Shown in pieces: positions 4,949 to 61,139 of a DNA stretch of 64,000 nucleotides (position 1 is its first letter; each line of letters opens with the position of its first letter). Below the pieces are notes generated by a model. It worked only from the letters and a program-made list of their open reading frames with translations, did no database searches and was not told the DNA's origin. Both the position numbers and the translations under genes were made by a program. The stretch is from assembly GCF_963921235.1 (NCBI RefSeq), contig NC_086108.1, positions 83,392,001 to 83,456,000 of the forward strand. The letters are read 5' to 3'. Source of the stretch: Mobula hypostoma (taxonomy: Eukaryota).

Positions 4949-6527
4949 CAACATGAGAAATTCTGCAGATGCTGGAAATTCAAGCAACACATAAAGTTGC
5001 TGGTAAACGCAGCAGGCCAGTCAGCATCTCTAGGAAGAGGTACAGTCGACGTTTTGGACCGAGACCCTTTGTCAGGACTAACTGAAGGAAGAGGTAGTAA
5101 GAGATTTGAAAGAGGGAGGGGGAGGGGGAGATCCAAAATGGTAGGAGAAGACAGGAGGGGGAGGGATGGAGCCAAGAGCTGGACAGGTGATAGGCAAAAG
5201 GGATACGAGAGGATCATGGGACAGGAGGTCCGGGGAGAAAGAAAAGGGGGGGGGCCAGAGGATGGGCAAGGGGTATAGTCAGAGGGACAGAGGGAGAAAA
5301 AGGAGAGAGAGAAAGAATGTGTGTATATAAATAAATAACGGATGGGGTACGAGGGGGAGGTGGGGCATTAGCGGAAGTTAGAGAAGTCAATGTTCATGCC
5401 ATCAGGTCGGAGGCTACCCAGACGGAATATAAGGTGTGGTTCCTCCAACCTGAGTGTGGCTTCATCTTTACAGTAGAGGAGGCCGTGGACAGACCTATCA
5501 GAATGGGAATGGGATGTGGAATTAAAATGTGTGGCCACTGGGAGATCCTGCTTTCTCTGGCGGACAGAGCGTGGGTGTTCAGCAAAACGATCTCCCAGTA
5601 TGCGTCGGGTCTCGCCAATATATAGAAGGCCACATCGGGAGCACCAGACGCAGTATATCACCCCAGCCAACTCACAGGTGAAGTGTCGCCTCACCTGGAA
5701 GGACTGTCTGGGGCCCTGAATGGTGGTAAGGGAGGAAGTGTAAGGGCATGTGTAGCACTTGTTCCACTTACAAGGATAAGTGCCAGGAGGGAGATCGGTG
5801 GGAAGGGATGTGGGGGGATGAATGGGCAAGGGAGTCGCATAGGGAGCGATCCCTGTGGAAAGCAGAGTGGTGGGGGGGAGTGTAAGATGTGCTTAGTGGT
5901 GGGATCCCGTTGGAGGTGGCGGAAGTTACGGAGAATAATATGTTGGACCCGAAGGCTGGTGGGGGGGTAGGTGAGGACCGGGGGACCCTATTCCTAGTGG
6001 GGTGGTGGGAGGATGGAGTGAGAGCAGATGTGCGTGAAATGGGGGAGATGCGTTTGAGAGCAGAGTTGATGGTGGAGGAAGGGAAGCCCCTTTCTTTAAA
6101 AAAGGACATCTCCCTTGTCCTGGAATGGAAAGCCTCATCCTGAGAGCAGATGTGGCAGAGATGGAGGAATTGCGAGAAGGAGATGGCATTTTTGCAAGAG
6201 ACAGGGTGAGAAGAGGAATAGTCCAGATAGCTGTGAGAGTCAGTAGACTTATAATAGACATCAGTAGATAAGCTGTCTCCAGAGATAGAGACAGAAAGAT
6301 CTAGAAAGGGGAGGGAGGTGTCAGAAATGGACCAGGTAAACTTGAGGGCAAGGTGAAAGTTGGAGGCAAAGTTAATGAAGTCAACAAGCTCAGCATGCGT
6401 GCAGGAAGCAGCGCCAATGCAGTCGTCGATGTAGTGAAGGAAAAGTGGGGGACAGATACCAGAATAGGTACGGAACATAGATTGTTCCACAAAGCCAACA
6501 AAAAGGCAGGCATAGCTAGGACCCATA
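4949..6527 (-). mobile_element. Penelope-like element (RT C-terminal half + GIY-YIG endonuclease + 3' hammerhead region), 5' truncated
   Basis: ORF 5768-6526 MGPSYACLFVG...YIDDC...FLDL; ORF 5368-5829 GVIYCVWCSRCGLLYIGET.R.L.DRFAEH; imperfect TSD CCTT(T)CCC(A/G)T. Confidence 0.92.
5043..5080 (-). ncRNA. Degenerate hammerhead ribozyme (core mutated)
   Basis: Reads TAGTC-CTGACAA-A-GGGTCTCGGTCC-AAAA-CGTC-GACTG; two conserved core Gs are changed to A, so probably inactive. Confidence 0.6.
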
Positions 6528-7225
6528 CCTTCCCGTAAAGACTTTGCAAAACATCACTTAGAAGACACAGTAAAGATGTGGAAGAAGGGCTTGTGGTCAG
6601 GTGAGACTAAGGTGAAACTTTTTTGCCTCAACACTTACCAGTACAGATGGTGTTAATCTAATACTATGCATCAGCCAGGTAACACTATCCTTACTGTAAA
6701 GTATGTTTGGAAGTGGCATTATGCTATGAGGATGGCTTTCAGCAGCAGGGACTGGAAATCCAGTCAGGATTGATGGAAAGATGAATACTACTAAATAGAG
6801 AGAGATCCTGGATCAAAACCTGCTAGCCTCTGCCAGAAAGCTTAAACCGGGGAGGAAGTTCATCTTTCAGCAGGACAATGACCTGAAGCACATTGCCGGA
6901 ATGACCATCAATTATCTTCAAATGAAGAAAGTTTACAGTATGTCCTTGGGTGGCCTAGTCAGAGTCCTGAGCTTAACCCAATCCAAGCTCTCCGGCAAGA
7001 CCTCAGGATTGTTGTCTACAACTGATCCAAAACTAACATGACACACACAGCTTGAGCAATTTTGCAAGGAGGAATCGTGCAAAGCTAATAGAGACTTATC
7101 CAAAAAGACTACTGGCTGTAATAGCTGCAAGATGTAGTTCAACCAAGTACAACATAGATAGGGATGAATACCTTTGAACCACTGACATTTCGGTTTAATT
7201 TGTAGATTTTCATACTTTACAATAG

Positions 7226-8317: not shown

Positions 8318-8996
8318 ATCCCTGGTTGACATACTTAATAATGTGAACAAAGGGTCAGGGGCCGAATACTTTTAAAAGTCACTGTACATGCCACTAATTT
8401 GTAAGAACCATTATAAATGTTGATTAACATGCGAGGGTTAATAGTATCAGTACATCAGAAATATAAAACACACTAAGGAGGAAATCCACCAGTTTTGGAT
8501 GCTTCCTGAGTTGTAGACCACATGAGTACTGCAGTACTCAAAAACACAACTAAACTATTTAAATTGGGCTGCTTAACAGAAGGCCAGCTGCGGCTTTCTG
8601 GCACCATTCTCTACAGCTCACAGAAATTGTTCTGCTCTTTGCCACTCAAAAGCTCTTAGCAAAAAAAAAAAACTCATCAACTATTGCAAAAGGCCTTCTG
8701 TTCCAGGATCATTCAACAGCCAAATTAATGCTTGATCGAGCACTATGCTTCGTGCATCACTAGTTTGAATCCTACTGCATCCAAAGGATCTCGATTCACT
8801 TAGATGTCCTCTTTGTGGTCTGGAGTGCTGGCTGCACATCTAAAATCCTACCTGAAAATTTGTTCATCTGGGCAAATAGGGGCACAAGGTCCCTGCTAGA
8901 TTTTCAACTTTTGCTTTATCGTTTCTCTGGAATGGAATTGTGTAAAAGCAATTCATCATCTCCCATTGGAATCAAGACAGAATTTGCAAGACTATA

Positions 8997-9253
8997 ACAC
9001 AAGGAATTCTGCAGATGCTGGAAATTCAAGCAACACACATCAAAGTTGCTGGTGAACACAGCAGGCCAGGCAGCATCTCTAGGAAGAGGTACAGTCGACG
9101 TTTCAGGCCGAGACCCTTCGTCAGGACACTCTTCGACCACATTTTGACTCAGACTCGCTATCACAGCCATATATCCTTTCTTGGAACGTGCCTCCGTCGC
9201 CAACTTACTCCAGTTGGCTTTAGGATTCGTTTCCGAGCCTCTCAATTTGGACC
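8997..9253. mobile_element. Bipartite Penelope-like mini-insertion: 3' tail + hammerhead on - strand (8997-9127) fused to a probable ORF N-terminal piece on + strand (9128-9253)
   Basis: 13-bp TSD TTGCAAG(A/G)CTATA at 8984-8996 and 9254-9266; tail matches 4950-5080; + part reads LFDHILTQTRYHSHISFLGTCLRRQLTPVGFRIRF. Confidence 0.8.
9092..9127 (-). ncRNA. Minimal type I hammerhead ribozyme, sense to MOB3C intron
   Basis: GTC-CTGACGA-A-GGGTCTCGGCCT-GAAA-CG-TC-GACTG; core intact, stem I shortened to 3 bp. Confidence 0.65.
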
Positions 9254-9492
9254 TTGCAAGGCTATATCTGTGTTCAAAGATAATTTTTTAAATGCAGCTA
9301 CCAACCAAATCTTAGAAGAACATACATTTTTTAAAAATTCTAAACAGAAACAGAGTTGCAAATTAGCTCAGCTATTTCAGTGACTTGTAAATATTTTGCA
9401 TTCAGCACTTAACTGATTCTACCAATACTAATTTAAAGCTTGTCACCACCTTTACCATATGCAAGCGTTTGTTTTACTCTTAAAAGTCTTAC

Positions 9493-9910
9493 CAACTCTG
9501 GTGGGGAAATTGTCCTCATCATTGATTAGGGTTTCAATCCAATCCATGAGCAAATTCATATACTGTGGAGCAGTCACTTTTGTAGGCTTCTTGTACTTGT
9601 GTTCATCCTGCCATCTGTATTCGTACTTCAGCCCTCCTGACATGATAGGACAGCTCCTTGCAGTGCAGTACTCACAAATGGTACCATAGATGAGGTTGAT
9701 TCGATTGAAGAAGTCTACAGTGTTCACTGCAATCCAGTCATTGAGGTTTTCCCCAGTAGGAAGCTGGACTACAGTCTTGAGATCAACACCAGATTTAAGT
9801 GAGGCCTGAGCTTTCTTATACAACTCAAACCGTTGGGTTCCAGGCTCAAATTTTTTTCGAGGTCGAAATGTCCTGTCTTTATTGAAAACTTGCTTCAGAC
9901 AAAGGGCCAT
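9493..9910 (-). CDS. MOB3C: MOB kinase activator 3C, first coding exon (139 codons + 1 nt, phase-1 intron follows)
   Basis: [41 protein letters not shown]...[12 protein letters not shown]...YEYRWQD...[18 protein letters not shown]; strong Kozak context AAGATGG; donor G|GTAAG at 9492; MALCLKQVF start and PTRVG end fit the 3C paralogue. Confidence 0.93.
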
Positions 9911-10068
9911 CTTCAAAATGGTGTAGAATGTCAAAAGTGGAACGTTTCTCTCTTAAACACAATTCAGCGCAGAAGCAATTCACTTGTCTTGACAGTGCTA
10001 ATGGGTAGATGTCAAGAGGTCACTCACTCAGGTCATTCTTCACAGCTTGATGTGGCAAACAAAATTTT
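9911..10068 (-). other. MOB3C: Probable 5'UTR part of the MOB3C coding exon
   Basis: Acceptor TTTTTTTTTGACAG| on - strand with AG at 10070-10069. Confidence 0.6.
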
Positions 10069-16217: not shown

Positions 16218-16365
16218 TTAAAACAAAATTGCTGGAAACACTGATGAATGATTTTCAGCCTGAAACATCAACTGTTTCTCTTTCCACAGCTGCTGCTTGA
16301 CCTGTCGAGAGGTTCCAAAATTTTTGTTTTATTTCAGATCTCCGACATCAGCAGTTGTTTGATTT
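16218..16365 (+). mobile_element. Old Penelope-like tail / degenerate hammerhead remnant
   Basis: CTGATGAA...CCTGAAACATCAACTG...GCTGCTGCTTGACCTG...CATCAGCAG resembles the younger tails. Confidence 0.5.
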
Positions 16366-18997
16366 TCAGTTCAGTGAGGCAATCCAACTAGTTGGACTGC
16401 GTTCCATGACAGCATGCATTCACCAATCCCATCTCCTCCTTGCAAATACATACTGAGAGAAATAAGCAAGCTGGCTCAGTTGTATTGCTTTTTTTTTTAC
16501 ATAGTATCCTCACCAGCTCTCATCCTTCTGCAAATTACAGGGAAAACTGCTCCCAGAGGATGACCTTAGAACTTTACCGGGCAAACCAAGGCATCCCATG
16601 CAGAGCCCATAAGCAAACTGATTGAATCAGTAATTATCATCCATAAGTTTTTATTCAGGGAGGGAGAAGTAACTGCATTTTTTTTACATTGAACATTTAC
16701 AAAGACAGAATAGTTGCTGGGAACTGACACAAAGATAATAATAAAATAACAGTTGTGCCTCAAAAGAATATGATTTAACTATTTCAGCGGAGAATCCTTT
16801 ACAATATAAATCAGAATTGCTGTTTCATTTAGAAACTGGATTGAAAAAAACAAAACTAATTTCAGTTCATACATATACAGGAGAACTGCATCAGAATTGT
16901 TCTGATCTGGACCTGAATCCACCTCCACAGTATAAAATAATACTGATTCACTGACCTTTCAGATGGGGATAGACACCCATCTATCTTCCATATGTGGCAG
17001 AATATTCTGCATGGCCCAAGCCACAGTAAGAACAGGCAAAACACGATGTACAACATAAAAATAGTTTGCAAATAAGAAATATTTTTCTGATTGCAGAACT
17101 AATTATACTCCCCTTTGCAAATTCTGAGAATGTACAGCAATGAAGGCGTTGAGGTTATGTTGTAAACAATTGATAACAAGATTGTCAGAAAGAGACACAA
17201 AAAGATGGCTCCTTAGAAACGTGGATGTTCTCAGCATTAGGTCTCTAGTTCATGTCCAGAGCGGAAATAAATGCAACCACTTCTAGGTTGAGTAGCATCA
17301 GTGCAACACTTCAAATTCAGGTTGCAGTTCAGCTTTGCAGCTTGCACAGTTTCTGTTATTCACCAACGTGAAGGCATTAGTCACCCACGGGCTAACATCA
17401 GTCCCTGGCTCATGACCAACTTAGATATTCCCAGGACAACTACAGTGTGAGGAACATATTCAGCACAGTTTCACATCAGCAGAGAGGCTTACATAAAACT
17501 GAATTCAGAATGTTCTACATTACTGCTGTTAACATGCTGTGCCTGAGTTTCCCTCAGTCCCACGATTAAGGGATAGATTCCATTCTCATTATTAATTGGT
17601 TTGGTCTGCTCTGATCCGTAGAACATTTTGGCTGCGAAGGAGTCTCAGATGGTTCTCCTAACTGTATTACGATCAACTGTGGAAGCATTTATTTTTTGCT
17701 CAGGGGCACCATAATTTTGAGTTATAAATCATTTAGGTATAAAATATAAAGCTAGACTTAACATCTGCTTTAAATGAACATGGAATTTGAAAAACGTTCT
17801 AAACAACAACTATTAACTCTAACAGAATAGCCAACTGTAGTGTTCATATGGACTGTGGTTGATCGTTTAGCACCTTTAGGAGGACTATTGTGTGTGAATT
17901 ACACACAATGCATGCAATATTCCTTCTGTACATTAACTGTCAAAAGTCTCTGGTTTAACAGACTGGTTGATTTGGAGGAATATTTACACTTACATTTCAG
18001 TAGCAACATAAGATTGAATAACTTGACCCTCGATCAATCACTAGCACAGCCAACAAAGAGTAGATTTTCTATCACAGAAGAGTCTGGTTGTACAAGAACA
18101 TAAATTCCATAGTATGGAAGGGTTTGATAACAACAATCCCACCCCAACACTATGTTTTACCCTCCCACCATCAGAAACACAAGGCTAACTAATACTTTCC
18201 CTTCCACAAGCAAAGTTGCAACTTCTGCTAAAGCCATTAAACCTCTGATCCAAGGACATATCAATCCCCCAACTATCTCAGGCAAAGGCTTGACCTGAGC
18301 CCGTCCTTGGAAGAGGAGGACCACGTAACATGTCGTCAAATGTGAAAGCCTGCAACCAAAGCAGCCGAATGTTAATGTAGACCGCCAATAACGTAAACCA
18401 GTCATCATTCCATTGCACTACCTACGCCATTCTAGACATCCATTTAAGTTAACAACAAAATTCATAGGGAAGAAACTTGTTAGATTTTTTTTATAAACAT
18501 TTGTAATGAAATCACATGATCTAACTATAATGGAAGGTCAAGGGTTGTTTCATTTTCATTCACTTAATATCTATTCGGTTTTTCCTAGTGTGTTATGTCT
18601 ACCAGTTGCCTTTGGGCAGAAAGCCAATATTAACAGTTGTGTGTTATCCTTAAGAAACTTTCCACGATCTCAAAATAATAAAATATTCTCTACTTGTCAC
18701 TATTTAAGGCGGCCATAATATCACCCGCCCCCCAAGCCAAGTTATTCTCTTTACAACAAAGTTGTTAAAATTCCACTGCACTGGGGGATCTCGGTGGAAC
18801 AGCTGCCTTTACATTTAGTCTGCATGCCACAAATCACTGGACAGTTGATTCCCGGCAGCTGAGACTCAAAGCGAACTGAAATCTGCAGAGCAATTGATGG
18901 GAAAGGACAAGTCATTTGTTTTTTAAAGAAGTTTTAAAATGAAGCAGAAAGCGAAAGCTCGGCATTAAGAGGTTCTGAAAAGAATTAAAAGTTTTGG

Positions 18998-21479: not shown

Positions 21480-22104
21480 GACCATTAGACTGGTCAAAGA
21501 ACACTGAGGCTGTCTACAAGAAGGGTCAGAGCCATCTCTATTTCCTGAGGAGACTGAGGTCCTTTAACACCTGCCGGACAATGCTGAAGATGTTCTACGA
21601 GTCTGTGGTGGCCAGTGCAATCATGTTTGCTGTTGTGTGCTGGGGCAGCAGGCTGAGGGTAGCAGACACCAACAGAATCAACAAACTCATTCGTAAGGCC
21701 GGTGATGTTGTGGGGATGGAACTGGACTCTCTCACGGTGGTGTCTGAAAAGAGGATGCTGTCCAAGTTGCATGCCATCTTGGACAATGTCTCCCATCCAC
21801 TACATAATGTACTGGTTGGGCACAGGAGTACATTCAGCCAGAGACTAATTTCAACGAGATGCAACACTGAGCGTCATAGGAAGTCATTCCTGCCTGTGGC
21901 AATCAAACTTTACAAGTCCTCCCTTGGAGGGTCAGACAGCCTGAGCCAATAGGCTGGTCCTGGACTTATTTCCTGGCATAATCTACATATTACTATTTAA
22001 CTATTTATGGTTTTATTATTATTATTTAATTATTTATGGTGCAACTGTAACGAAAACCAATTTCCCCTGGGATCAATAAAGTATGACTATGACTGTGACT
22101 ACTA
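21480..22104 (+). mobile_element. Rex1-like LINE (family B) 3' part
   Basis: MFYESVVASAIMFAVVCWG...SHPLH...CNTERHRKSFLP; GGATCAATAAAG + (ATGACT)n tail; near-identical to 49540-50306. Confidence 0.85.
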
Positions 22105-24018: not shown

Positions 24019-24538
24019 CAGTACTGTGCAAAAGTCTCAGGCACTCTAGATTTTTTAATATCATTTCAGATGGTATGGCCTCCACAGAACCCTGATCTCA
24101 ACATCACTGAGACTCTCTGAGATTACACGGAGAGACCGAAGTAAGCAACACAGCCAAGGTCTGCAGAGGAACTGCGACAAGTTTTTCAAGATGCTTGGAA
24201 CAACCTCCCAAGCTATTCTTTCTTATAAAACTTTATGACAATGTACCTAAGAAAACTAATACAGTTTTAAAGGCTCATCAAATTTGGAGGTCACACCAAA
24301 TATTGATTTTATTCAGTCCTGACGAAGGGTCTCGGCCCGAAATGTGACTGTGCTTCTTCCTATGGATGCTGTCTGGCCTGCTGTGTTCACCAGCAATTTT
24401 TATGTGCGTTGATTGATTTTATTTAGTTTTTTTAACTGTTTACTACTCTTTTTTTGATATTTAGAAACTTTTTATTTCATTATTTTTGAAGGAGTCTTTG
24501 CTTTATAGATTTTTTTACATGACTTTTGCATAGTACTG
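24019..24538 (+). mobile_element. Internally deleted Tc1-like transposon
   Basis: TA-CAGTACTGTGCAAAAGTC / GACTTTTGCATAGTACTG-TA TIRs; internal WPPQNPDLNITE motif. Confidence 0.85.
24314..24411 (+). mobile_element. 98-bp Penelope-like hammerhead/tail mini-insertion
   Basis: Begins CAGTCCTGACGAAGGGTCTCGGCCCGAAA; perfect 12-bp TSD ATTGATTTTATT (24302-24313, 24412-24423); cleavage-site C missing. Confidence 0.85.
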
Positions 24539-25036: not shown

Positions 25037-26322
25037 TCAGAGTCAGAATCAGAATCAGAATCAGAGTCACGTTTATCTGCAGAATTCCTGTTGTTCACGT
25101 TTATTATCACCGACATGTGACGTGAAATGTGTTAACTTAGCAGCAGCAGTTCAATGCAATACATAATCTAGCAGAGAGAGAAAAAATAATAATAATAAAT
25201 GAAATAAAACATAATATTAAATAAACAAGTAAATCAATTACGTATATTGAATAGATTTTTAAAAATGTGCAAAAACAGAAATACTGTATATTAAAAAAGT
25301 GAGCTAGTGTCCAAAGCTTCAATGTCCATTTAGGAATCGGATGGCAGAGGGGAAGAAGCTGTTCCTGAATCACTGAGTGTGTGCCTTCAGGCTTCTGTAT
25401 CTCCTACCTGATGGTAACAGTGAGAAAAGGGCATGCCCTGGGTGCTGGAGGTCCTTAATAACGGACGCTGCCTTTCTGAGACACCGCTCCTTAAAGATGT
25501 CCTGGGTACTTTGTAGGCTCGTACCCAAGATGGAGCTGACTAGATTTACAACTCTCTGCAGCTTCTTTCAGTCCTGTGCAGTAGCCCCTCCATACCAGAC
25601 AGTGATGCAGCCTTGCAGAATGCTCTCCATGGTACAACTATGGAAGTTTTTGAGTGTATTTGTTGACATGCCAAATCTCTTCAAGCTCCTCATAAAGTAT
25701 AACCACTGTTTTCCTTCTTTATAACTGCATCGCTATGTTGGGACCAGGTTAGATCCTCAGAGATCTTGACACCCAGGAACTTGAAGCTGCTCACTCTCTC
25801 CACTTCTGATCCCTCTATGAGGATTAGTATGCGTTCCTTCATCTTGCCCTTCCTGAAGTCCACAATCAGCTCTTTCGTCTCACTGACGTTGAGTGCCAGG
25901 TTGTTGCTGCAACACCACTCCACTAGTTGACATATCTCACTCCTGTACACCCTCTCGTCTCCATCTGAGATTTTACCAACAATGGTTGTATCGTCAGCAA
26001 ATTTATAGATGATGTTTAAGCTATGCCTAGCCACACAGTCATGTGTATATAGAGAGTAGAGCAGTGGGCTAAGCACACACCCCTGAGATGCACCAGTGTT
26101 GATCGTCAGTGAGGAGGATAAGTTATCGCCAATCCACAGATTGTGGTCTTCTGGTTAGGAAGTCAAGAATCCAATTGCAGAGGGAAGTACAGAGGTCCAG
26201 GTTCTGTAACTTCTCAATCAGGATTGTGGGAATGATGGTATTAACTGCTGAGCTGTAGTCGATGAACAGCATCCTGACGTAGGTGTTTGTGTTGTCTAGG
26301 TGGTCTAAAGCCATGTGGAGAC
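25037..26322 (-). mobile_element. Rex1/Babar-like LINE, RT 3' half + UTR
   Basis: [28 protein letters not shown]...KFADDTT; (TCTGAT)n tail at ~25037-25066. Confidence 0.88.
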
Positions 26323-26329
26323 CCATTTC

Positions 26330-26806
26330 TTTAACTTCCAGTAATTTCTCCCCCACCCCTTCGCATTACTCTCTATTTCCATTCCCCATTCTGGCTCCCT
26401 TCTTACGACTTCTCTTCTCCTCATCTGCCAGTCCTGTCACCATCTCCCCCCACCCCCCACCCCCCACTACTGATGCCCATCCTCATTCTCTTTCTTCCAT
26501 GATCAACTCCCCTCTCCTATCAGATTCCTTCTTCTTCAGCCCTTTACCTCTTCCACCTATCGGCTCCCAATTCATCCCTCCTCCTTACCCACTTACCTTA
26601 CCCCTCAGCTGGTTTCACCTTTCACTTGCCAGCTTGTAGTCCTTCCCCTCCCCTACCTTCTTATTCTGTCTTCTTGTCATGAAAGGTCTGGGCCCAAAAT
26701 GTCACTGTTTAGTCCTCTCCATTAAATCTATCTGACCTGCTGAGTTTCTCCAGTATTTTCTGTTTTTTGCTCTGGATTTCTAGCATCTGCTAAATCTCTT
26801 GCGTTT
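26330..26806 (+). mobile_element. Old Penelope-like 3' UTR fragment with decayed hammerhead
   Basis: TTCTTAACTTCCAGTAA ORF end, pyrimidine-rich UTR, ATGAAAGGTCTGGGCCCAAAATGTCACTG, CATCTGC tail. Confidence 0.6.
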
Positions 26807-27069
26807 GTAGTTTCTCAGTAGCCTTTCCATCAAGTCCAGGCACATCAATAATCTGAGCACATGCTCGTCCAGGTATCTCTACTCCCGAATCCCCATTTAA
26901 TTTTACCACTTGACTGAAAGATCTCAGTTCATAGTTCTCTGGGTGAAATTCCATCCTTCCCTACTTTGCAAATGTCCTCCTGAACCCTAGTATTAGCCTT
27001 CTCATTGTCCATGATACGTTTCAGCTTCATGCCATCTGCATTGACAATCATCAACCTAAAACACTCACA

Positions 27070-27241
27070 CAACACACATCCAAGTTGCTGGTGAACGCAG
27101 CAGGACTGACGAAGGGTCTCGACCTGAAACGTCGACTGCACCTCTTCCTAGAGATGGTGCCTGGCCTGCTGTGTTCACCAGCAACTTTGATGTGTGTTGC
27201 TTGAATTTCCAGCATCTGCAGAATTCCTGTTGTTTGCGTTT
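27070..27241 (+). mobile_element. Penelope-like hammerhead/tail mini-insertion with inverted 5' segment
   Basis: 27070-27104 is the reverse complement of ~27164-27199; CTGACGA...GAAACGTCGACTG core; 14-bp TSD CTAAAACA(C/T)TCACA. Confidence 0.85.
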
Positions 27242-29130: not shown

Positions 29131-29647
29131 TGGATTAGAATGAAGAATTGTTATTTTTCTCATTTACTTTTCCTATAGTTTTCCTATACTTGTTTACATT
29201 TTTTATGTAATCACCTATATGTGATTGTATTATATAGTACAGTGAATTTTCAATAACTGTAGTATAGCTGATTCTGTGTTTTTCTAGAAGCTTCTCTGCT
29301 TCCTCTATCATGCTACTGACCTGACCATTTCATAGGCTACCTCTTATTAATTCACTGATTTTATTATGGTTATTGGATTTATTAAGTATGCCCGCAAGAA
29401 AATGAATCTCAGAGTTGTACATGGAGACATATATGTAATTTGATAATGAATTTACTTTGAATGCTGAACTTTATCAGTGGAATATCTTGTTATCTGTCTA
29501 GTTTGTATAAGGTGACAACTTCTTTGTTCTTTGTTCTTGGCTTTTCAGTTTTTCTCTGTTCACTCATTGACCTCCCCCTCCATTACAGCAGAGTGAGTTG
29601 GTTACCATTATTTGTTTGATATGAACAGCTAATAAAACAGCCAAAAT

Positions 29648-29685
29648 CAGTCCTGATGAAGGGTCTCGGCCCGAAACGTCGACTG
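29648..29685 (+). ncRNA. Minimal type I hammerhead ribozyme, best-preserved copy
   Basis: CAGTC-CTGATGA-A-GGGT(CTCG)GCCC-GAAA-CG-TC-GACTG; 5-bp stem I, 4-bp stem II, palindromic ACGT stem III. Confidence 0.85.
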
Positions 29686-29787
29686 TACCTCTTCCTAGAG
29701 ATACTGCCTGGCCTGCTGCGTTCACCAGCAACTTTGATGTGTGTTGCTTGAATTTCCAGCATCTGCAGAATTCCTCGTGTTTGCGGA
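29648..29787 (+). mobile_element. Penelope-like hammerhead/tail mini-insertion
   Basis: Tail closely matches other copies; TSD CAAAATCA at 29642-29649 and 29788-29795. Confidence 0.8.
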
Positions 29788-30064
29788 CAAAATCAACAAG
29801 CTTTATGCCTCCCCCTTGACTTCCAAAGAACATCTGGATCACAGTATTACCAGGGTGTTGAGTATAAGAGTAAGGAAGTCATGCTGTAGTGATATAAAAC
29901 TTTAGTTAGTGCGCACTTGGAGAATTGAGTGGGATACTGCTCTTCCATTATATCTAGGTAGTTTTTTTTAGGAAAGGATGCAGAAGAGGTTCACTAGGAT
30001 GCTGTCTCGATCAGAGGGTATGAGCTGTAAGGAAACATTGGACAAACTTGGGTTGTTCACAATA

Positions 30065-31387: not shown

Positions 31388-33030
31388 TCAAGTCAAGCCA
31401 AGTCAAGTCACTTTTTATTGTCATTTCAACCATAACTGCTGGTACAGAACACAGTAAAAATGAGACAATGTTTTCCAGGACCATGGTGCTACAGGAAACA
31501 ATACAAAAACTACACTGAACTACATAAAACAACACAAAACTACACTAGACTACAGACCTACCCAGGACTGCATAAAGTGCACAAAACAGTGCAGGCATTA
31601 CAATAAATAATAAACAAGACAATAGGCACAGTAGAAGGCAGTAGCTTGGTGTCAGTCCAGGCTCTGGGTATTGAGGAGTCTGATGGCTTGGGGGAAGAAA
31701 CTGTTACATAGTCTGGTCGTTAGAGCCCGAATGCTTCGGTGCCTTTTGCTAGATGGCAGGAGGGTGAAGAGTTTGCATGAGGGTTGCGTGGGGTTCTTCA
31801 TAATACTGTTTGCTTTACGGATGCAGCGTGTGGTGTAAGTGTCTATAATGGCGGGAAGAGAGACCCTGATGATCTTCTCAGTTGACCTCACGATCCGCTG
31901 CAGGGTCTTGCGATCTGAGATGGTGCAATTTCCGAACCAGGCAGTGATGCAGCTGCTCAGGATGCTCTCAATACAACCTCTGTAGAATGTGGTGAGGACG
32001 GTGGGTGGGAGATGGACTTCTCTCAGCCTTCGCAGAAAGTAGAGATGCTGCTGGGCTTTCTTTGCTATGGAGCTGGTGTTGAGGGACCAGGTGAGATTCT
32101 CCGCCAGGTGAACACCAAGAAATTTGGTGCTCTTAATGATCTCTATGGATGAGTCGTCGATGTTCGGCGGAGAGTGGTCGTTCCGTTTCCTTCTGAAGTC
32201 AGCAACCATCTCTTTTGTTTTGTTCACATTCAGAGACAGGTTGTTGGCTCTGCACCAGTCCGTTAGCCGCTGCACCTCCTCTCTGTATGCTGACTCATCG
32301 TTCTTGCTGATGAGACCCACCACGGTTGTGTCATCGGCGAACTTGATGATGTGGTTCGAGCTGTGTGTTGCAGCACAGTCGTGGGTCAGCAGAGTGAACA
32401 GCAGTGGACTGAGCACACAGCCCTGGGAGGCCCCCATGCTCTGTGTGATGGTGTTGGAGATGTTGTTGCCAATCCAGACTGACTGAGGTCTCCAGTCAGG
32501 AAGTCTAGGATCCAATTGCAGAGGGAGGTGTTCAGGCCCAGTAGGCTCAGCTTTCCAGTCAGTTTCTGAGGAATGATTGTGTTGAATGCTGAACTGAAGT
32601 CTATGAACAGCATTCGAACATACGTGTCTTTTTTGTCCAGGTGGGTTAGGGCCAGGTGGAGGGTGATGGCAATGGCGTAGTCTGTTGAATGGTTGGGAAG
32701 ATACGCGAACTGCAGGGGGTCCAGTGAGGGGAGAAGCAGGGTCTTGATGTGCCTCATGACGAGCCTCTCGAAACACTTCATGATGATGGATGTGAGTGCG
32801 ACGGGACGGTAGTCGTTGAGGCAGGACACTGAAGACTTCTTTGGCACGGGGATGATGGTGGCGGCCTTGAAGCACGTAGGAACGACGGCGCCTCTCAGGG
32901 AGATGTTGAAGATGTCAGTGAGAATCTCAGCTAGCTGTTCTGCACATCCTCTAAGCACTCTGCCGGGAATATTGTCTGGTCCAGCAGCTTTCCGTGAGTT
33001 GACCCTGCACAGGGTCCTCCTCACATCGGC
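31388..33030 (-). mobile_element. Young Rex1/Babar-like LINE, 5' truncated, nearly intact RT (one frameshift)
   Basis: ORFs 32386-33024 ([13 protein letters not shown]...NDYRPVALT...LDPLQFAY...[11 protein letters not shown]) and 31652-32875 ([10 protein letters not shown]...KFADD...); (GACTT)n tail. Confidence 0.93.
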
Positions 33031-33523
33031 CTCTTACTTTTAAGTAAGAGGGAGGAGGTTTAAAGGTGATGTGAAGGGGAAGGTTTTTTTTAACACAGAG
33101 AATGGTAGGTGCTTGCAATGGGTTACCAGAGGTAATAGAAGATCTGGGCAGTTTGATGGAGTTCAAGGGGCTTTTCATAAATTTGAAGGGAATCGAGGGA
33201 TATGGTGGAAGAATTTTGGTAAAAATAGACATTAAGATTACACAACATTTTGGGCTAAATGGTCCATCCAATGCTGTACTGTTCAATGTTCTATGAACAA
33301 TAATAAGATTTAAGGGGTATCGGGACAGGTACGGCACGTGAATGAGCATGACAGAGAGAGATTTGAAACAAATGCAGGCAAGTGGATCTATAGACAGGCA
33401 TAACGATCAGTGCAGGGGAGTCTGTTCCTATGCTGTAGAAATCTATGACTCTGTTCCTTTCCCAATTCTGTAATCAATCATATCCATTACTGACTATCTT
33501 TAAATTTCACAGAGTGTGCATGC

Positions 33524-47808: not shown

Positions 47809-49539
47809 AGTGTAAACAAATTACAGGGACAGCAGCAAATTAAAACCTGTTGATGATTAGAGGGCCTTCCTGCTATTGAACATATGATTTTTCCCTTCCC
47901 CCCTCACAGAAATCTCCATGACTAAGGGGAATGCCTTAAGGTAAATTCCAGAAATTTTTAAAAGAAATTGAGAAAGATTTTTTTACATAGATACGCAGGA
48001 CTCAGAGAGGGCTAAAATGTTGAGTTTCAATGTTGCAGTGAAAGAGTTAAATCTGTTGCATGTTGATTAATGTCATGAGCGGAACACATCCAGTGGCAGT
48101 CAGCTGTGCAGCCGCCTGGTGGCAACCAGCACATATTTTTACATGTATCAACAATGTCATTTAAAACCTTATCTGTTGCATCCAAAAACATACAGATTTG
48201 ATGTTACTTTTAAGAAAAACCGTGCACTTTTAAAATCTATTAATTGAGAAATTGCACATTTCATAGTTTAAAAACACAAAATTTATTTTCATTAGAATAT
48301 AGTGCCGTTTTAGTCTTTGACAACAAATGGCAGGGAATGACAGAAAATCTCCAGAAATATTAACACTTTAAAACATATAAATTATACCTTTACTAAATTG
48401 GGAAGAGTAGTTTGCAAGCATTGAACAATATTGATTTGTAAGATGACAGAGAAAACTTAATTCTGAATAGTGTCCCCCTAAGATGTACCAAGGAACCTTG
48501 GTATTCATGTCCAAGCATGTCTGAAGGCAATACCACTGATAGTTAAGATTCAGCTGGATGTTACCTGAGATGAAACATTTCAGCAGCAAGGAGAGAATGG
48601 ATAAGCTTGTTTTCCTTGGGAGGAAAGAGGCTGAAGGTATCTGATTGAGACAAACAAAATTTTGATCTGCGTGGATAGGATAGATGGGAAAAGTTTATCA
48701 CTTTAACGGAGAGATCCTACAGCCAGAATGCATAAGACCATGAGATATAGGAGCAGAATTAGGCTATTTGGCCCATCAAGTGTGCTCCGCCTTTTCATCA
48801 TGGCTGATCCAATTTTCCTCTCAGTCCCAATCTCCAGAATTCTTCCCACATTATTTCATGCCCTGACCAATCAAGAATCTATCAACCACTCTCTTAAGTA
48901 TACATAAAGACTTGGCCTCCACACCTACCTGTGGCAAAAAATTCCACAGATTCACCACTCTCTGGCTAAAAATACTCCTAATCATTTCCATTCTAAAAGG
49001 ACACCCCTCTGTTCTGAGGCCTTACACTCTCCACCACAGGAAAGATCTACTCCGCATCCATTCTGTCAAGGCCTTTCACCATTCGATAAGTTTCACTGGG
49101 GTCACCCCTTGTTCTTCTGAATTCAGGACCAGAGCCATCAAATGCTCTTTATATGATGCCATTCAATCCTGGAATCATTTTCACGTACCTCCTTTGAAGC
49201 CTCTCCAGTTTCATCGTGTCCTTTCTAAGATAAGAGGCCCAAAACTGCTCGCAATACTCCCAGTGAGGCCTCACCAGTGCTTTATAAAGTCTCAACATTA
49301 CATCCTTGCTTTTATATTCCAGTCCTCTTGAAATGAATGCTGACATCATATTTGCATTCCTCACCACAGACTCAACCTGTAAATTAACCTTTAGGGAATC
49401 CTACACAAGGACTCCCAATTCTCTTTGCACATCAGTTTTTTGTATTTTCTCTCCTTTTCATTTCTTCTAACAAGTGCATGACCATACACTTCTCAACACT
49501 GTATTCCATCTGCCATTTCTTTGAACATTCTCCTAATCT

Positions 49540-50306
49540 AAGACTAAGGAGCTGGTGGTGGACCTGAGGAGGGCTAAGGTACCGGTGACCCCTGTTTCCA
49601 TCCAGGGAGTCAGTGTGGACATGGTGGAGGATTACAAATACCTGGGGATACGAACTGACAATAAACTGGACTGGTCAAAGAACACTGAGGCTGTCTACAA
49701 GAAGGGTCAGAGCCGTCTCTATTTCCTGAGGAGACTGAGGTCCTTTAACATCTGCTGGATGATGCTGAGGATGTTCTACGAGTCTGTGGTGGCCAGTGCT
49801 ATCATGTTTGCTGTTGTGTGCTGGGGCAGCAGGCTGAGGGTAGCAGACACCAACAGAATCAACAAACTCATTCATAAGGCCAGTGATGTTGTGGGAATGG
49901 AACTGGACTCTCTGACGGTGGTGTCTGAAAAGACGATGCTGTCCAAGTTGCATGCCATCTTGGACAATGTCTGCCATCCATTACATAATGTACTGGTTGG
50001 GCACAGGAGTACATTCAGCCAGAGACTCATTCCACTGAGATGCAACACTGAGCATCATAGGAAGTCATTACTGCCTGTGGCCATCAAATTTTACAACTCC
50101 TCCCTTGGAGAGTCAGACACTCTGAGCCAATAGGCTGGTCCTGGACTTATTTCCATCTGGCATAATTTACATATTACTGTTAAATTATTTATGGTTTTAT
50201 ATTGCCATATTTATACTCTTTTCTTGGTTGATGCAACTGTAATGAAACCCAATTTCCCTCGGGATCAATAAAGTATGTCTATCTATCTATCTTTCTATCT
50301 ATCTAT
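49540..50306 (+). mobile_element. Rex1-like LINE (family B) 3' part nested in CR1
   Basis: ORF 49555-50133; (TATC)n tail; TSD CTAATCT at 49533-49539 and 50307-50313. Confidence 0.88.
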
Positions 50307-51167: not shown

Positions 51168-52818
51168 CAGAATCAGGTTTATTATCACCGGAATGTGTTG
51201 TGAAATTTGTTAACATAGCAGCAGCAGTTCTATGAAATACATTATATAGAAGAAGAAAAAAAAAAAAAATCAATTACAGTATTGAATAGATTAAAAATCA
51301 TGCAAAAAAAGAAATAACATATATTAAAAAAGTGAGGTAGTGTCCATGGGTTCATTTAGGAAGTTTTTGAGTGTTTTTGTTGACATACCAAATCTCTTCA
51401 AACTCCTAATGAAGTACAGTACAGTCGTTTTCTTGACTTCTTTATAACTGCATCAATATGTTGGGACAAGTTTAGATCCTCAGAGATCCTGACACGCAGG
51501 AACTTAAACTACTCACTCTCTCTACTTCTGATCCCTGTATGAAGATTGGTATGTGTTCCTTTGTCTTACCCTTCCTGAAGTCCGTAATCAGCTCTTTCAT
51601 CTTACTGACATTCAGTGCAAGGTTGTTGCTGCGGCACCACTCTATTAGTTGGCACATCTCACTCCTGTGTGCCCTCTCATCCTCCATCTGAGATTCTACC
51701 TACAATGGTTGTATCATCAGCTAATTTATCAATGGTATTGGAGCTATGCCTTGCCACACAGTCATTGGTATACAGAGAGTAGAGCAGTGGGCTAAGCACA
51801 CATCCTTGAGGTGCACCAGTGTTGATTGGCAGCGAGGAGGAGATATTATCACCAATCCACACAGATTGTGGTCTTCGGGTTAGGTAGTCAAGGATCCAAT
51901 TACAGAGGGAGGTACAGAGGCCCAGGTTCTGTAACTTCTCAATCAGGATTGTGGGATTGAGGAGGGAGGAGAAAATGGCGGCGTGACGCAGCGCACACGA
52001 CCGTTCCGAATGAATATCGATATGTGTAACTAGGGGGCCGTGCATCAATCCGGATTTGATGGGAACAGCCGTGAAGAAGCACGGCGGAACATCTGGTGAA
52101 ACTTCTGAAATGCCTGCTTCGCTGTCGCTGCTACTGTGTGATCAAGAATCTCCAGAGACGAAGGCCCCAAATCCTCGGCTTTGCGCATTACCTGTTGCCG
52201 GGGCCGGGGTCGAAATGCTCGGCAGTGATGGTGCTCGGTGCTCGGTGTCGAATAGGTGGTCGGAGGCTCGGAGTTTCTCGGACGGACTCAGAGTCGGACT
52301 GTAGTCGGATGCTTCCGGATGCTGCATCGGCAAGTTGGCGGTGCTGGAGGTTTACCGTCTGCGTGAGATGATGGGACTTCCGAGTGATTCTGAGACTTTT
52401 ACAGTGCCATGGTCTGTTCTTATCAAGTTACGGTATTGCTTTGCACTGTTGTAACTACATGTTATAATTAGGTGGTTTTTGTTAGTTTTTAAGTCAGTTT
52501 GTCATGTGTTTTCGTGATATCATTCTGGAAAAACATTTTTATCATTTCTTAATGCATGCATTATAAATGACAATAAAAGGAGACTGCGTGTCCTCATAGT
52601 CATAATAATAATAATAAATGATGAGCTATAGTCAATGAGCAGCATCCTGTTGTCCAGGTGATCTAAGGCCACGTGAAGAGTTATTGAGATTGCATCTATT
52701 GTTGACCTATTGTGGCCACAGGCAAATTGCAGTGGGTCCAGGTCCTTGCTGAGGCAGGAGTTCAGTCTAGTCATGACCAACCTCTCAAAGCATTTCATCA
52801 CTGTCGATGTGAGTGCTA
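51168..52818 (-). mobile_element. Rex1-like LINE fragment nested in CR1, itself split by a SINE-like element
   Basis: MKCFERLV...[24 protein letters not shown]...ADDTT; TCTGAT tail. Confidence 0.82.
51958..52617 (+). mobile_element. GC-rich non-autonomous retroposon, second copy of 2941-3637
   Basis: Colinear homology (GGAACATCTGGTGAAACTTCTGAAATGCCTGCTTCGCTG...); AAAATGGCGGC head; (ATA)n tail. Confidence 0.75.
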
Positions 52819-54420: not shown

Positions 54421-57125
54421 CTAGAGCCAAAAGACAAATTTTAAAAGTTCGTAGGGGGGACGGTAGTTTAGCTTGTAATTATGAAGACTTTTACATTGAA
54501 CTTTATAATTCTCAGTTTCCAGCTGATCCTTCTAAAATGAATACCTTTTTACAGAAGACTGATTTTCCTCGAATTTCTGTTGAAGATCAACAAACTCTTG
54601 ATACTCCTATTACTGAAAACGAAATTCAGAAAGCTATTCTTTCAATGCAATCTGGTAAAGCTCCTGGATTGGATGGTTATTCTGTAGGATTTTATAAATA
54701 AAGTTTGAGGTGGTATGCTTTGGAAGGACAAACTCCAAGGCAGAGTACATAGTAAATGGCAGGATACTTGGTAGTGTGGAGGAGCAGAGGAATCTGGGGG
54801 TACATGTCCACAGATCCCTGAAAGTTGCCTCACGGGTAGAAAGGGTAGTTAAGAAAGCTTATGGGGTGTTAGCTTTCATAATCGAGGGATAGAGTTTAAG
54901 AGTTGCGAGGTAATGATGCAGCTCTATAAAACTCTGGTTAGGCCACATTTGGAGTAGTGTGTCCAGTTCTGGTCACCTCACTATAGGAAGGATGTGGAAG
55001 CATTGGAAAGGGTACAAAGGAGATTTACCAGGATGCTGCCTGGTTTAGAGAGCATGGATTATGATCAGAGATTAAGGATGAGAGGAGACATGATAGAGGT
55101 ATACAAGATATTAAGAGGAATAGATAGAGTAGATAGCCAGCGCCTCTTCCCCAGGGCACCACTGCTCAATACAAGAGGACATGGCTTTAAGGTAAGGGGT
55201 GGGAAGTTCAAGGGGGATATTAGAGGAAGGTTTTTCACTCAGAGAGTGGTTGTTGCGTGGAATGCACTGCCTGAGTCAGATACACTAGTGAAATTTAAGA
55301 GACTACTAGACAGGTATATGGAGGAATTTAAGGTGGGAGGTTATATGGGAGGAGGGTTTGAGGGTCAGCACAACATTGTGGGCTGAAGGGCCTCTACTGT
55401 GCTGCACTATTCTATGTTCTATGTTCTATAAAAATATGAAAAATTGCTTTCTCCATATATGCTGGAAAGGCTTAAAGATTCTTTTTGGATAGGAGGGTTA
55501 CCTCTCACATTTTATGAAGCTTCTATTTCTTTAATTCTTAAGAAAAATAAAGACCCTACTGACTGTGCTTCATATAGACCTATTTCATTATGAAATGCGG
55601 ATGCTAAAATTCTTTCAAAAATAATGGCTGATCGACTGGAGAATATTCTAGCTAAAATTATCCTTCAGGACCAAACAGGTTTTGTAAAGGGCCGTTATTC
55701 CTTCTCTAATATTCGGAGACTGTTAAATGTTATATTCTCATCCTTTTCTAAGCCTCCCCAATGTGTTGTTTCTCTCGATGCCTCAAAGGCATTTGACAGA
55801 GTTGAATGGAAATACTTATTTAACGTTTTAGAGAAATTTGGCTTTGGTATTACCTTTAATAAGTGGATTAGAATGATATATAAAAGCCCTATTGCTATTG
55901 TTATTACTAATAATTGCAGATCTCCTTGTTTTTGACTCTCACGGGGTACGAGACAAGGATGTCCGTTAAGTCCCTTGTTATTTAATTTGGTGTTGGAACC
56001 CTTGGCCATTGCACTTCGTGAAGCTAAAGATATCCATGGAATTTTCATAAATGGAACTATTCACAAGATCTCCCTTTATGCTGACGATCTCTTAGTTCAT
56101 GTTTTAAATCCTGAAGAATCCATTCCTAGTTTTTTGAAATTATTAAATTTATTTGGAAAGTTTTCGGGATATAAACTAAACCCTCATAAAAGTGAATTAT
56201 TTCCTCTTAATGATTCTGCTTCTATATATGATGACATTCCTTTTAGAGTTACGGACTCTTTTAAATATTTAGGTATTATTATCACTAAAAATCATAGAGA
56301 CCTTTATAGAGCTAATTTGGTTCCTTTAGTGGATTTTATGAAGCAATTAATTTGTAGATGGAATCCACTTACACTTTGGTTAGCCAGCCGAATTCATGCA
56401 GTTAAAATGATGATTTTACCAAAATTTTTATATGTATTTCAAAATATCCCTTTTTTTAACTAATAAGTTTTTTGATCAGGTTGATTCTATTATTTCATCT
56501 TTTGTTTGGAATAATAAAAGACCAGGAATTGGAAAATGTCATTTACAAAAACTAAAACGGGTTGGAGGTGTTGCCCTGCCTAATTTATGAATATACTATT
56601 GGGCTGTTAATATATGTTATATGTGCTCTTGGTTATATTGGGCTGATAAAAATGAACGACCACCTTGGGCTGATTTGGAATTGAAAGCTGTGAAACAGTT
56701 TCACTTAACCTCATTATTAGGAGCTTCTTTACCTGTACAACTGGCCAAAATTGCTCATCTAAATTTATATCCTATGATTAAGTAGTCATTACGAATTTGG
56801 TACCAGTTTCATAATTTTTTTAATCTCAAAAAATTTAACCTCCTTAGTTTAATTTATCAAAATTATTTATTTAAACCTTCATTAAGTGATCCTACCTTTC
56901 TTCTTTGGAGGAATAAAGGAGTTTGTTCCTTCATGGATCTGTTCCAAGAAGGGCGATTGATATCTTTTGAGAAATTGGTAACTAAATACTCTCTCTCATA
57001 CTCACATTTCTTGCAATATCTTCAGGTCAGACATTTCTTACTACATATTGACATGTTGACTTGATTACCTTAATGTATTTTTTGTTGATCTTTAATAATT
57101 AATAAAAAAGATTTTAAAAATGAAA
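54421..57125 (+). mobile_element. L1-clade LINE ORF2 (RT) remnant, 5' truncated and internally deleted, nested in CR1
   Basis: KAPGLDG...FYK; YRPISL; QTGFVKGR; SLDASKAFDRVEW; GTRQGCPLSPLLF; LYADD; FSGYKLN..KSE; FKYLGI; A-rich end. Confidence 0.9.
54699..55428 (+). mobile_element. CR1 3' end nested in L1
   Basis: ERVQRRFTRMLPGL...TRGHGFKVRG...FFTQRVV; (TTCTATG)n tail; probable TSD TATAAA. Confidence 0.88.
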
Positions 57126-58907: not shown

Positions 58908-59637
58908 TGTTTGGGGTGATATACTGTCTCCGGTGCTCCCGATGTGGCCTTTTATATATTGGCAAGAACCGAAGCAGACTGGGAGTCCGCTTTGCTGAAC
59001 ACCTACGCTCTGTCCGCCAGAGAAAGCAAGATCTCCCAGTGGCCACACATTTTAATTCCACATCCCATTCCAATTCTGACATGTCTATCCACGGCCTCCT
59101 CTACTGTAAAGATGAAGCCACACTCAGGTTGGAGGAACAACACCTTATATTCCGTCTGGGTAGCCTCCAACCTGATGGCATGAACATCGACTTCTCTAAC
59201 CCGCTAATGCCCCACCTCCCCCTCGTACCCCATCTGTTACTTATTTTTATACACACATTCTTTCTCTCACTCTCCTTTTTCTCCCTCTGTCCCTCTGAAT
59301 ATAACCCTTGCCCATCCTCTGGGTCCCCCTCCCCACCTTGTCTTTCTTCCCGGACCTCCTGTCCCATGATCCTCTCGTATCCCTTTTGCCTATCACCTGT
59401 CCAGCTCTCGGCTCCATCCCTCCCCCTCCTGTCTTCTCCTATCATTTTGCATCTCCCCCTCCCCCTCCAACTTTCAAATCCCTTACTCACTCTTCCTTCA
59501 GTTAGTCCTGACGAAGGGTCTCGGCCTGAAACGTCGACTGCACCTCTTCCTAGAGATGCTGCCTGGCCTGCTGTGTTCACCAACAACTTTTATGTGTGTT
59601 GCTTGAATTTCCAGCACCTGCAGAATTCCTGTTGTTT
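58908..59637 (+). mobile_element. Penelope-like element 3' fragment (GIY-YIG + UTR + hammerhead)
   Basis: VIYCLRCSRCGLLYIG..R..L..RFAEH; TSD GCTGTTC(C/A)GC at 58898-58907 and 59638-59647. Confidence 0.92.
59503..59540 (+). ncRNA. Minimal type I hammerhead ribozyme
   Basis: TAGTC-CTGACGA-A-GGGTCTCGGCCT-GAAA-CG-TC-GACTG; core intact. Confidence 0.78.
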
Positions 59638-61139
59638 GCTGTTCAGCATTGCCATCATTCCTGACTCTGAATGTAGATGCTACCAGTAAGCAGTCTTTGT
59701 CTTACACTTTTCATCACAAATATGTACCGATGCAGCGGTTCAGCATGTTAGATTTTTATCAGTGATGATCTTGGCAAACTCATCAATGAATTTCTCTGCT
59801 GCTTCGTGATCAGCACAAATCTTTAAAAAATTAATGCTGTGCCTTTTCTTAAATTTCTGCGACCAGCCTACTGAATATTCATAATTATCTTCAATTTTTA
59901 GTTCGCCGCGATAGATCTTTGCTTGTTTCATGATTAGTTTACCATTAAGCAGCCATATGTTCACTCTGACGCTGATGAATCCAGTTTCAATATATGAAGA
60001 AGATCTTCAATTTTCACCTTATGTAGTGTTTTTCTATTTTTCATTAACTTGTATTCATTACAAATGTGAGGTCATTATTCAGAACCGTCAGTGGTGCACA
60101 GAAATCTGTGCATCGTTTGGGAACCTTCGCAGAGCCTTGTGGAATTTTCCATTTGTGATGTCATGTTAGGGCTAAAAAAAAAATTTGGATTTCGGAGGTC
60201 TTCTGGTTTTAGAATTTCGGATAAGGGGTGCTCAGTCTGTAATATTTTTCACAGACAGTGATTGAAATCTGGAACAGTGTCTGAGGGATTGGTGGACATA
60301 GCAACTTTCATAATGTAGATGAAAGCATGAAATGCTGTGGCAGAAAAAGCTATGGGTCGAGTGCTGGAAAATCGAATTAGTACAGATAGGTACAAAGTGA
60401 CCTCCATGGATTTCATGGGACATAGGGCCTACTTCTCTGTTCCATACAGACTAAAACTGCCTAAAACAATCTTTGCAAGATATGGGGTTCCTAAGGAAAC
60501 ATATTTACTTGTTTTACAGTCCTGTCACTCTTTTATTCCTGATGAGGGAATGATATATTCAAATTATTTTGACTTTTATTTGACCAGCCACTTTCATCCC
60601 TGGCTTCAGATCCAGCAGGTAGCCAAAAACAATATACAACAAAATGGCATTAATAGTCCTTTACTAAAAAACTTACATAATAGATCTTTAAATAACAATA
60701 AAATAGATGACATTTCTATCAGTCAATGGCCACTTCAAGATTGATAAAAATGAATTGAGAAGTTTTGTGCATGACAAATGAGAGAAATATATAGAAATGC
60801 ATGTAACCTCCCATTTTCTGATAGAGACATCACTTCAAATCCATTGCTATAAAACTTTTAGCAAATACCTGAAATAATTGCATGATTATATAATTGTATA
60901 TTTTATGCTATTCTTGTGAATATTGTGCCTTTAATGCTATGTTCTTGTGACGCTGCTGCAAGCAAATTTTTCATTACATATAGTACATGTCCTTGTGTAT
61001 GACAAAAAAAAATCCGAACTTTGACTTTGAAAGGCAACATTAGTAAAGGGTGGAATCATGATCTGTCTATTCTCTCAAAGTGATCTACTGCCAAACTACC
61101 AGCTGGAAGGAGACCACTGATTAAAACCTCTCACTCAGT

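Follow-up and report, generated by a model that had tools for sequence, protein, structure and literature searches.

The window analysed here, the whole stretch of 64,000 nucleotides of Mobula hypostoma DNA, carries a minimal type I hammerhead motif (min-HHR) at the 5' end of a short, truncated insertion of a Penelope-like element. The parts of the motif, of the insertion and of its target site are as follows.

29648-29685, + strand, minimal type I hammerhead motif, with the letters as the sequence-only reading gave them
29648-29652 and 29681-29685, + strand, the two sides of stem I
29653-29659, + strand, core positions C3 to A9
29660, + strand, extra A
29661-29664 and 29669-29672, + strand, stem II with a 4-nt loop
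29673-29676, + strand, core positions G12 to A15.1
29677-29678, + strand, palindromic positions 15.2/16.2
29679-29680, + strand, U16.1 and C17, with the predicted cut after C17 (29680)
29650-29785, + strand, 5'-truncated Penelope-like insertion of 136 bp, young lineage, C11.1 type
29640-29649, + strand, left target-site duplicate of 10 bp, with one mismatch to the right one
29786-29795, + strand, right target-site duplicate of 10 bp

The sequence-only reading had proposed a minimal type I hammerhead carried by a Penelope-like element, and both parts of that proposal stand: the letters were confirmed, genome-wide matches lie far above reversed controls, and the motif is found behind a frame for reverse transcriptase (RT) and GIY-YIG endonuclease that paired motifs bracket. 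A descriptor check found the type I order with the CUGANGA, GAAA and UH core elements all present in the focal motif. Helix III is lacking, and the palindrome ACGU occupies 29676-29679. Positions 15.2/16.2 read CG in 51 of 93 copies, which makes CG the majority state, the remainder being mostly CpG decay. Every core position agrees with the min-HHRs described in the accessible text of PMC4209133, as do the extra A and the palindrome at 15.2/16.2. The extra A had been taken for a variant feature; it is instead a conserved one, since an unpaired A stands between A9 and 10.1 in 35/35 young and 62/66 old copies, as in the Penelope min-HHRs of the same source.

The 136-bp insertion comprises the hammerhead and about 104 nt of pseudo-LTR and tail. 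Aligned with a near-full-length copy, it shows 93% identity to that copy's 3' end, and it stops at the long-tail position. The first two letters of stem I (C, A) fall within the left target-site duplicate. Because the first position of stem I is U, not C, in all 26 young-lineage copies aligned there, the perfect closing C-G pair of the focal stem I was most likely supplied by the target site.

Further copies lie in the same window.

1500-2092, + strand, older-lineage copy with GIY-YIG end and diverged 3' UTR
1960-1997, + strand, hammerhead of that copy, with a UCCG loop and a 4-bp stem I
4950-6528, - strand, 5'-truncated copy with the C-terminal half of the RT, a CX4CxxC linker, a frameshifted GIY-YIG end and the 3' UTR
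5043-5080, - strand, core-mutated hammerhead of that copy
8996-9127, - strand, short copy of U11.1 type that begins inside the 5' strand of stem I
16236-16380, + strand, decayed older-lineage copy with approximate ends
24314-24420, + strand, short copy with target-site duplication and damaged hammerhead core
26671-26807, + strand, decayed older-lineage copy
27070-27237, + strand, fold-back insertion made of an inverted arm (27070-27104) and a copy starting at C3 (27106)
58912-59639, + strand, 5'-truncated copy with GIY-YIG end
59503-59540, + strand, intact U11.1-type hammerhead of that copy

An ungapped scan recovered the sister copies reported at 1960(+), 5043(-), 9092(-), 24314(+), 27101/27106(+) and 59503(+), together with a decayed one at 26671, and the sequence at 16241 aligns as a decayed member. 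The statement that the core stays fixed among them did not hold, as only three of the nine window copies (1960, 29648 and 59503) pass the full type I descriptor. G8 and G12 are lost at 5043, the 15.2/17 region is broken at 24314, and the 5' strand of stem I is partly or wholly missing at 9092 and 27106. The model search that had been suggested was thus positive by descriptor for these three copies and negative in Rfam, where no hammerhead family matched at E<=5 because the motif is too minimal for the Rfam hammerhead models. The loose pattern CTGANGA-N5-30-GAAA was found 12 times in the window against a mean of 7.4 expected, a difference that is not significant. Joined to the front of the 9092(-) copy is a stretch (about 9128-9255) in inverted orientation, whose source, close to where the element's ORF starts, lies about 3.1 kb away in the unit.

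The window also holds sequence of other kinds. A coding exon at 9452-9952(-) has a strong Pfam Mob1_phocein match (E 1.7e-43) and is presumably MOB3-like; the 9092(-) and 5043(-) copies, downstream on the same strand, probably lie in an intron of its gene. Fragments of other non-LTR retrotransposons with RVT_1, some followed by an ALKBH8_N-like domain, occur at 31652-33033 (-), 21482-21952, 25690-26154, 49537-50133, 51677-52141 and 55936-56463. A short inverted repeat at 1395-1460 gives a weak Rfam mir-9256 match, far under the gathering score.

Upstream of the 5043 and 59503 copies lie coding pieces for the RT C-terminal part, the cysteine linker and the GIY-YIG domain. A genome search with one window coding piece returned 114,814 candidates; among the 146 that were scored, open frames reached 949 amino acids. 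RT, zinc-finger linker and GIY-YIG are joined in one frame, and the motif follows its stop codon at a distance of about 290 nt. In near-full-length copies the RT frame is bracketed by two motifs on the same strand, 3,512-3,513 nt apart, and 138 nt separate the predicted cut site from the first AUG behind it. Two of the 20 stretches around long frames (L073 and L074) show a partial tandem flanking a 935-aa RT frame, in the order inverted truncated copy, short direct copy, frame and second motif. The motif is therefore located in the pseudo-LTRs of a Penelope-like element, and the partial tandem, the inverted 5' copy and the optional 30-40 bp tail are all present.

The natural ORF of 949 aa (L076) contains DKG, YIDD, CX4CxxC at residue 816 and a C-C-H-H endonuclease motif. 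Its Pfam matches to RVT_1 and GIY-YIG are weak and under the curated cut-offs; RVT_1 was found in 1,090 of its related proteins at E<=1e-20. The closest named relatives of the element protein are bamboo shark proteins, at 68% identity, which suggests that the host is a cartilaginous fish. A metagenome scan for related elements gave one weak locus among 163 candidates, and this locus was set aside. A CX2-5CxxC linker between RT and endonuclease is present both in the L076 ORF and in window frame 5368-5892, and such a linker marks Neptune and Nematis (Craig et al., bioRxiv 10.1101/2021.04.23.441226, accessible text). Judged by its sequence, the host would be an endonuclease-positive Penelope-like element of Neptune type, the type being assigned from a linker motif that Nematis shares.

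Three observations were made in passing on the stretches around long frames. In L041-L090 the length of a C-rich run directly upstream of the cysteine linker is not constant from copy to copy, so that RT and endonuclease are often out of frame with each other, and 10 long frames share an out-of-frame stop; slippage in the copies or assembly error may explain this length variation. At L073:3436-4008 (-), a 535-nt 3' fragment stands head-to-tail right behind the end of a full copy, which gives the look of an insertion into the tail of the element itself. At L079:8279-10000 lies a coding piece that we take to be MHC class I-like, with a tandem repeat rich in proline and serine behind it.

The expectation of a very large number of such ribozyme motifs was borne out in the 3.48 Gb searched. 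The 31-letter C11.1 pattern with any N7 gave 7,580 exact matches against none in the reversed control, and the bare core pattern with a 13-letter spacer gave 100,750 against 103, so that core-intact motifs amount to about 29 per Mb. Since lengthening stem II by one letter left only 87 matches, the length of stem II and its loop is nearly fixed. A random sample of 140 evenly spaced 10-kb stretches (1.4 Mb) held 159 copies with at most 12 mismatches out of 38, the reversed control none; 31 of the 159 match the core pattern, and extrapolation gives about 395,000 recognisable copies genome-wide. About 4% of the sample aligns to one young element.

Such numbers of short copies raise the question of whether they form a separate non-autonomous element of about 140 nt, either a SINE-like unit or a non-LTR retrozyme. 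About one third of the young copies measure 100-150 nt, many with target duplications of their own, and retrozymes are described as derived from Penelope pseudo-LTRs (bioRxiv 10.64898/2026.07.22.740005, in the part available). However, the short copies carry the 3'-end sequence and the lineage markers of the long ones, their lengths run continuously up to several kb with varying 5' ends, and the 159 sampled copies include only four same-strand neighbours within 1 kb and no array. We regard a separate element as very improbable. Its non-LTR retrozyme form was rejected because head-to-tail units of 150-450 nt are absent among these 159 copies and the motif is minimal, not canonical.

Comparison of old and young copies shows the 38-mer to be a conserved island, kept about as well as the coding end. 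Identity between the two is 77% for the hammerhead (82% off CpG sites), 75% for the ORF end, 57% for the 3' UTR and 67% for the tail, with an aligner background near 50%. Old-lineage copies were chosen by a downstream anchor, and 28 of 132 had an ORF end alignable to the young reference (one of the 28 fetched via its own hammerhead); the 60% threshold for alignability raises the ORF figure. Stem covariation, whose absence the sequence-only reading had named as part of what would refute the call, did not materialise: the 93 well-preserved copies show one-sided changes only, with a two-sided change in at most 1/93 copies for any pair of stem I or stem II. The common changes are C-G to U-G at 2.5-1.5 and G-C to G-U at 10.1-11.1. 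The compared lineages are close, which leaves little room for compensatory changes. The putative catalytic activity of the motif thus rests on family membership and sequence conservation.

Two variants of the core mark lineages of their own. The focal copy and the old lineages have a G10.1-C11.1 pair, while the dominant young lineage has G10.1-U11.1; a single N7 state with U11.1 accounts for 39,897 exact matches, compared to 7,580 when C11.1 is combined with any N7. U11.1 is also present in most of the motifs next to the longest frames, and in four assembled-contig runs of related organisms, of uncertain RNA status, the family is present, mostly as U11.1, with loose ends at both motif edges. 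CpG decay was considered as the origin of U11.1 and rejected, since 43 young copies show 31 TG against one CA whereas other CpGs in young copies decay about evenly. U11.1 is also linked to a flanking marker (p=1.6e-4), and on this sequence evidence it is inherited. The second variant, A6C, occurs in 18/95 old copies, where it goes with flanking sequences of its own (p=4e-5 and 8e-5); its pattern matches the genome 3,901 times, compared to 1,158 times for the control transition A6G. According to the accessible parts of the respective papers, natural A6C hammerheads are slow (PMC3088659) and can prefer Mn2+ (PMC7151607). Our literature search met no Penelope paper with A6C, although the supplements of PMC4209133 may cover such variants.

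The success of these variants could mean that a motif of hammerhead descent is kept mainly for another job, as a transcription-start or splice-acceptor signal or as a protein-binding hairpin, with cleavage attenuated or dispensable. The excess of inherited U11.1 over C11.1 (39,897 to 7,580), the flank-linked excess of A6C over A6G (3,901 to 1,158) in a variant whose natural examples are slow (PMC3088659) and the unimpaired insertion in vitro of hammerhead mutants reported in PMC11167929 are in line with this idea. So is the 5' strand of stem I: of the 62 copies with a pyrimidine-rich upstream flank, 51 read YAG there, preceded by a pyrimidine tract. Nevertheless, the other core letters are the majority state in old and young lineages alike despite drift of the UTR, A6C hammerheads still cleave (PMC3088659, PMC7151607), and none of 36 copies with 5' ends at -12 to +27 has same-strand element sequence in front. 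It is thus quite unlikely, in our judgement, that another job accounts for the motif. The pyrimidine tract followed by YAG recurs in all lineages (for example at window 59480-59505) and is splice acceptor-like; in Drosophila virilis the Penelope intron is described as ending at helix I (PMC4209133). Internal splicing to this site was rejected, the expected junction being found in 0/36 copies.

The folding of the motif was predicted with energies that exclude the tertiary core. The best monomer fold (-12.7 kcal/mol, z -1.6) keeps stems I and II but covers the cut site, through pairing of G5-G8 to C15.2-C17. For the C11.1 type the double hammerhead reaches -19.9 kcal/mol and the best two-strand fold -33.7; for U11.1 the values are -11.5 and -30.3 kcal/mol, so that in both types the double hammerhead is by far the less stable of the two. 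A stem II register that pairs the extra A with U11.1 was discarded (-1.1 compared to -2.3 kcal/mol for the G10.1 register). These predicted energies fit the low or protein-dependent activity described for the class in the accessible text of PMC4209133 and PMC11167929. The motif likely cuts itself only in pairs, and a lone genomic copy such as the focal one is predicted to be an inactive, largely inert hairpin.

To read the ends of the copies, 80 young copies were used whose anchor lies downstream of the cut site, 50 of them taken from the random sample and 30 from a pattern search. Seven touched the locus edge and were dropped, which left 73; positions count from the start of stem I, and all end statistics refer to young copies only. 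The 3' ends are bimodal, 37/73 at +90 to +112 and 35/73 at +125 to +137, which corresponds to the known optional tail. The 5' ends pile up at stem I: 23 of the 60 copies reaching +10 begin between -10 and +10, where the upstream rate predicts 3.1%. This pile-up is broad (31/73 in -10 to +27), and four of seven scored window copies, the focal one included, start at +1 to +5. An apparent pile-up at +1 in the old lineage was set aside as partly an alignment artefact, their upstream UTR being different from the young reference. Within 5 nt of the cut site (+33) only 1/69 copies begins, as background predicts. With no excess of ends there, cut linear RNA is not a common template. Since upstream partial copies extend 160-240 nt past the stem I edge, either a circle, a read-through RNA or a template jump is required to explain the long copies.

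From the pile-up we infer that the transcript starts at the front of stem I, where the letters, as we take it, resemble an initiator. A Drosophila Penelope element is transcribed from within its own pseudo-LTR, according to the accessible text of PMC2377424. The main rival to an RNA start at stem I is snap-back of the cDNA after the hairpin has been copied, which would either end synthesis or prime a fold-back. The 38-mer is predicted to fold as one long hairpin, fold-back arms make up 11 of the 23 edge copies (and these 11 are not independent events) and most of the ends at +11 to +27, 17 of 20 close opposite-strand pairs are head-to-head, and self-priming has been proposed for rotifer Penelope (PMC3846280, accessible text). 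On the other hand, the remaining 12 edge copies are simple insertions, eight of them with a duplication of at least 9 bp; some ends lie at -8 to -10, outside the hairpin; and a stall at entry into an RNA hairpin predicts ends at +21 to +40, where few are found. Snap-back as the source of the pile-up is therefore unlikely, and an RNA start at stem I is the reading that we follow.

Taken together, we give a probability of about 0.72 to the following reading. The focal copy is a scrap of a Penelope-like element that still carries its min-HHR. Tandem source copies have two motifs about 3.5 kb from each other; these likely adopt a joint fold, probably with the aid of the element's protein, and would cut out a unit-length RNA. 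The reverse transcriptase would initiate on RNA not yet cleaved, using either of two internal positions about 65 or 100 nt beyond the cut site. On a transcript whose 5' end is the front of stem I it would reach the end of the template after 100-140 nt, and the product would be a scrap such as the focal copy. Long and more-than-unit copies would derive from a cut and ligated circle or from tandem read-through RNA. What speaks against this reading is the absence of two-sided covariation, the low stability of the double-hammerhead fold, the U11.1 and A6C departures from the consensus core, the breadth of the pile-up with its 11 dependent fold-back arms, and the Pfam scores under the cut-offs.

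A bolder version, which we consider possible but doubtful, is a cycle with two templates. From uncut RNA starting at stem I, a cDNA of 100-140 nt that resembles a strong-stop product would be made. It would have two fates, insertion as a scrap or a jump to the 3' pseudo-LTR of identical sequence, the latter in parallel to retroviral strong-stop DNA. The internal hairpin would restrain the hammerhead, and successive successful lineages would have had their cores weakened in series, A6C and then G10.1-U11.1. If so, the family would be a natural series in which to test the level of ribozyme activity that a Penelope element requires. No paper on such a strong-stop-like cDNA of a Penelope element came up in our literature search, which left most subscription papers outside its coverage.

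Hammerhead mutants of a Penelope element still inserted in vitro (PMC11167929, accessible text). What this genome adds is scale and statistics, with lineages of core variants and insertions enough to read template ends. The 5'-end pile-up together with the U11.1 and A6C lineages makes the choice between circle and template jump, and that between active and attenuated ribozyme, directly testable. Within the same limits of coverage, no paper on the hammerhead of this Penelope family was found.

Motifs of this kind and their host element are already in the literature, and this family is a further, very abundant case. Min-HHRs are known in the fish elements Neptune, Poseidon and Xena, with a conserved nucleotide between 9 and 10.1 (PMC4209133). 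As in the min-HHRs of Cervera and De la Pena (2014; PMC4209133, accessible text), we find type I topology, a full core, a short helix I, a helix III limited to the palindrome, the unpaired nucleotide between 9 and 10.1 and a site in pseudo-LTRs; copies are mostly single and truncated, with some pairs about 3 kb apart and some close pairs on opposite strands. Helix II has 4 bp here and 7-8 bp in the Schistosoma min-HHRs of that paper. In contrast to their conserved G10.1-C11.1, the dominant lineage has G-U and an old lineage A6C, and while compensatory changes within a genome are listed there, two-sided covariation is absent here. The roughly 100,000 core matches compare with about 9,000 in Xenopus tropicalis, the highest number in the accessible text of that paper, and about 4,000 in coelacanth, although the counting methods differ. 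The element resembles the Neptune clade as described in bioRxiv 10.1101/2021.04.23.441226, with a single ORF containing RT, CX2-5CxxC and, at its C-terminus, GIY-YIG with CCHH, and with partial tandems, inverted 5' copies and an optional 30-40 bp tail.

The Anolis Poseidon element PAc (Frangieh et al., 2024; PMC11167929, accessible text) is close in other respects. Its hammerhead cleaves only with the element's protein, and its main template is uncut RNA. Like PAc, the element described here would have two RT start sites that define the tail, and it has a hammerhead near the ORF start; neither RNA nor insertion ends at the cut site in PAc, and insertion ends behave likewise here. However, the PAc ORF starts inside the hammerhead, whereas here 138 nt lie between the cut site and the first AUG, and no 5'-end pile-up at stem I of the kind seen here is described for PAc in that text. 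Retrozymes offer the other comparison, and a 2026 preprint, as far as accessible, surveys them in one cartilaginous fish. In the axolotl, 126,247 canonical retrozyme hammerheads were counted in a 28-Gb genome (PMC7229834, accessible text). The likeness to these non-LTR retrozymes lies in the very high copy number and in type I hammerheads, dimer-dependent in the axolotl; the difference is that retrozymes are non-coding tandem repeats with canonical hammerheads, whereas the motifs described here are the dispersed ends of a coding element, at about six times the axolotl's density per Mb.
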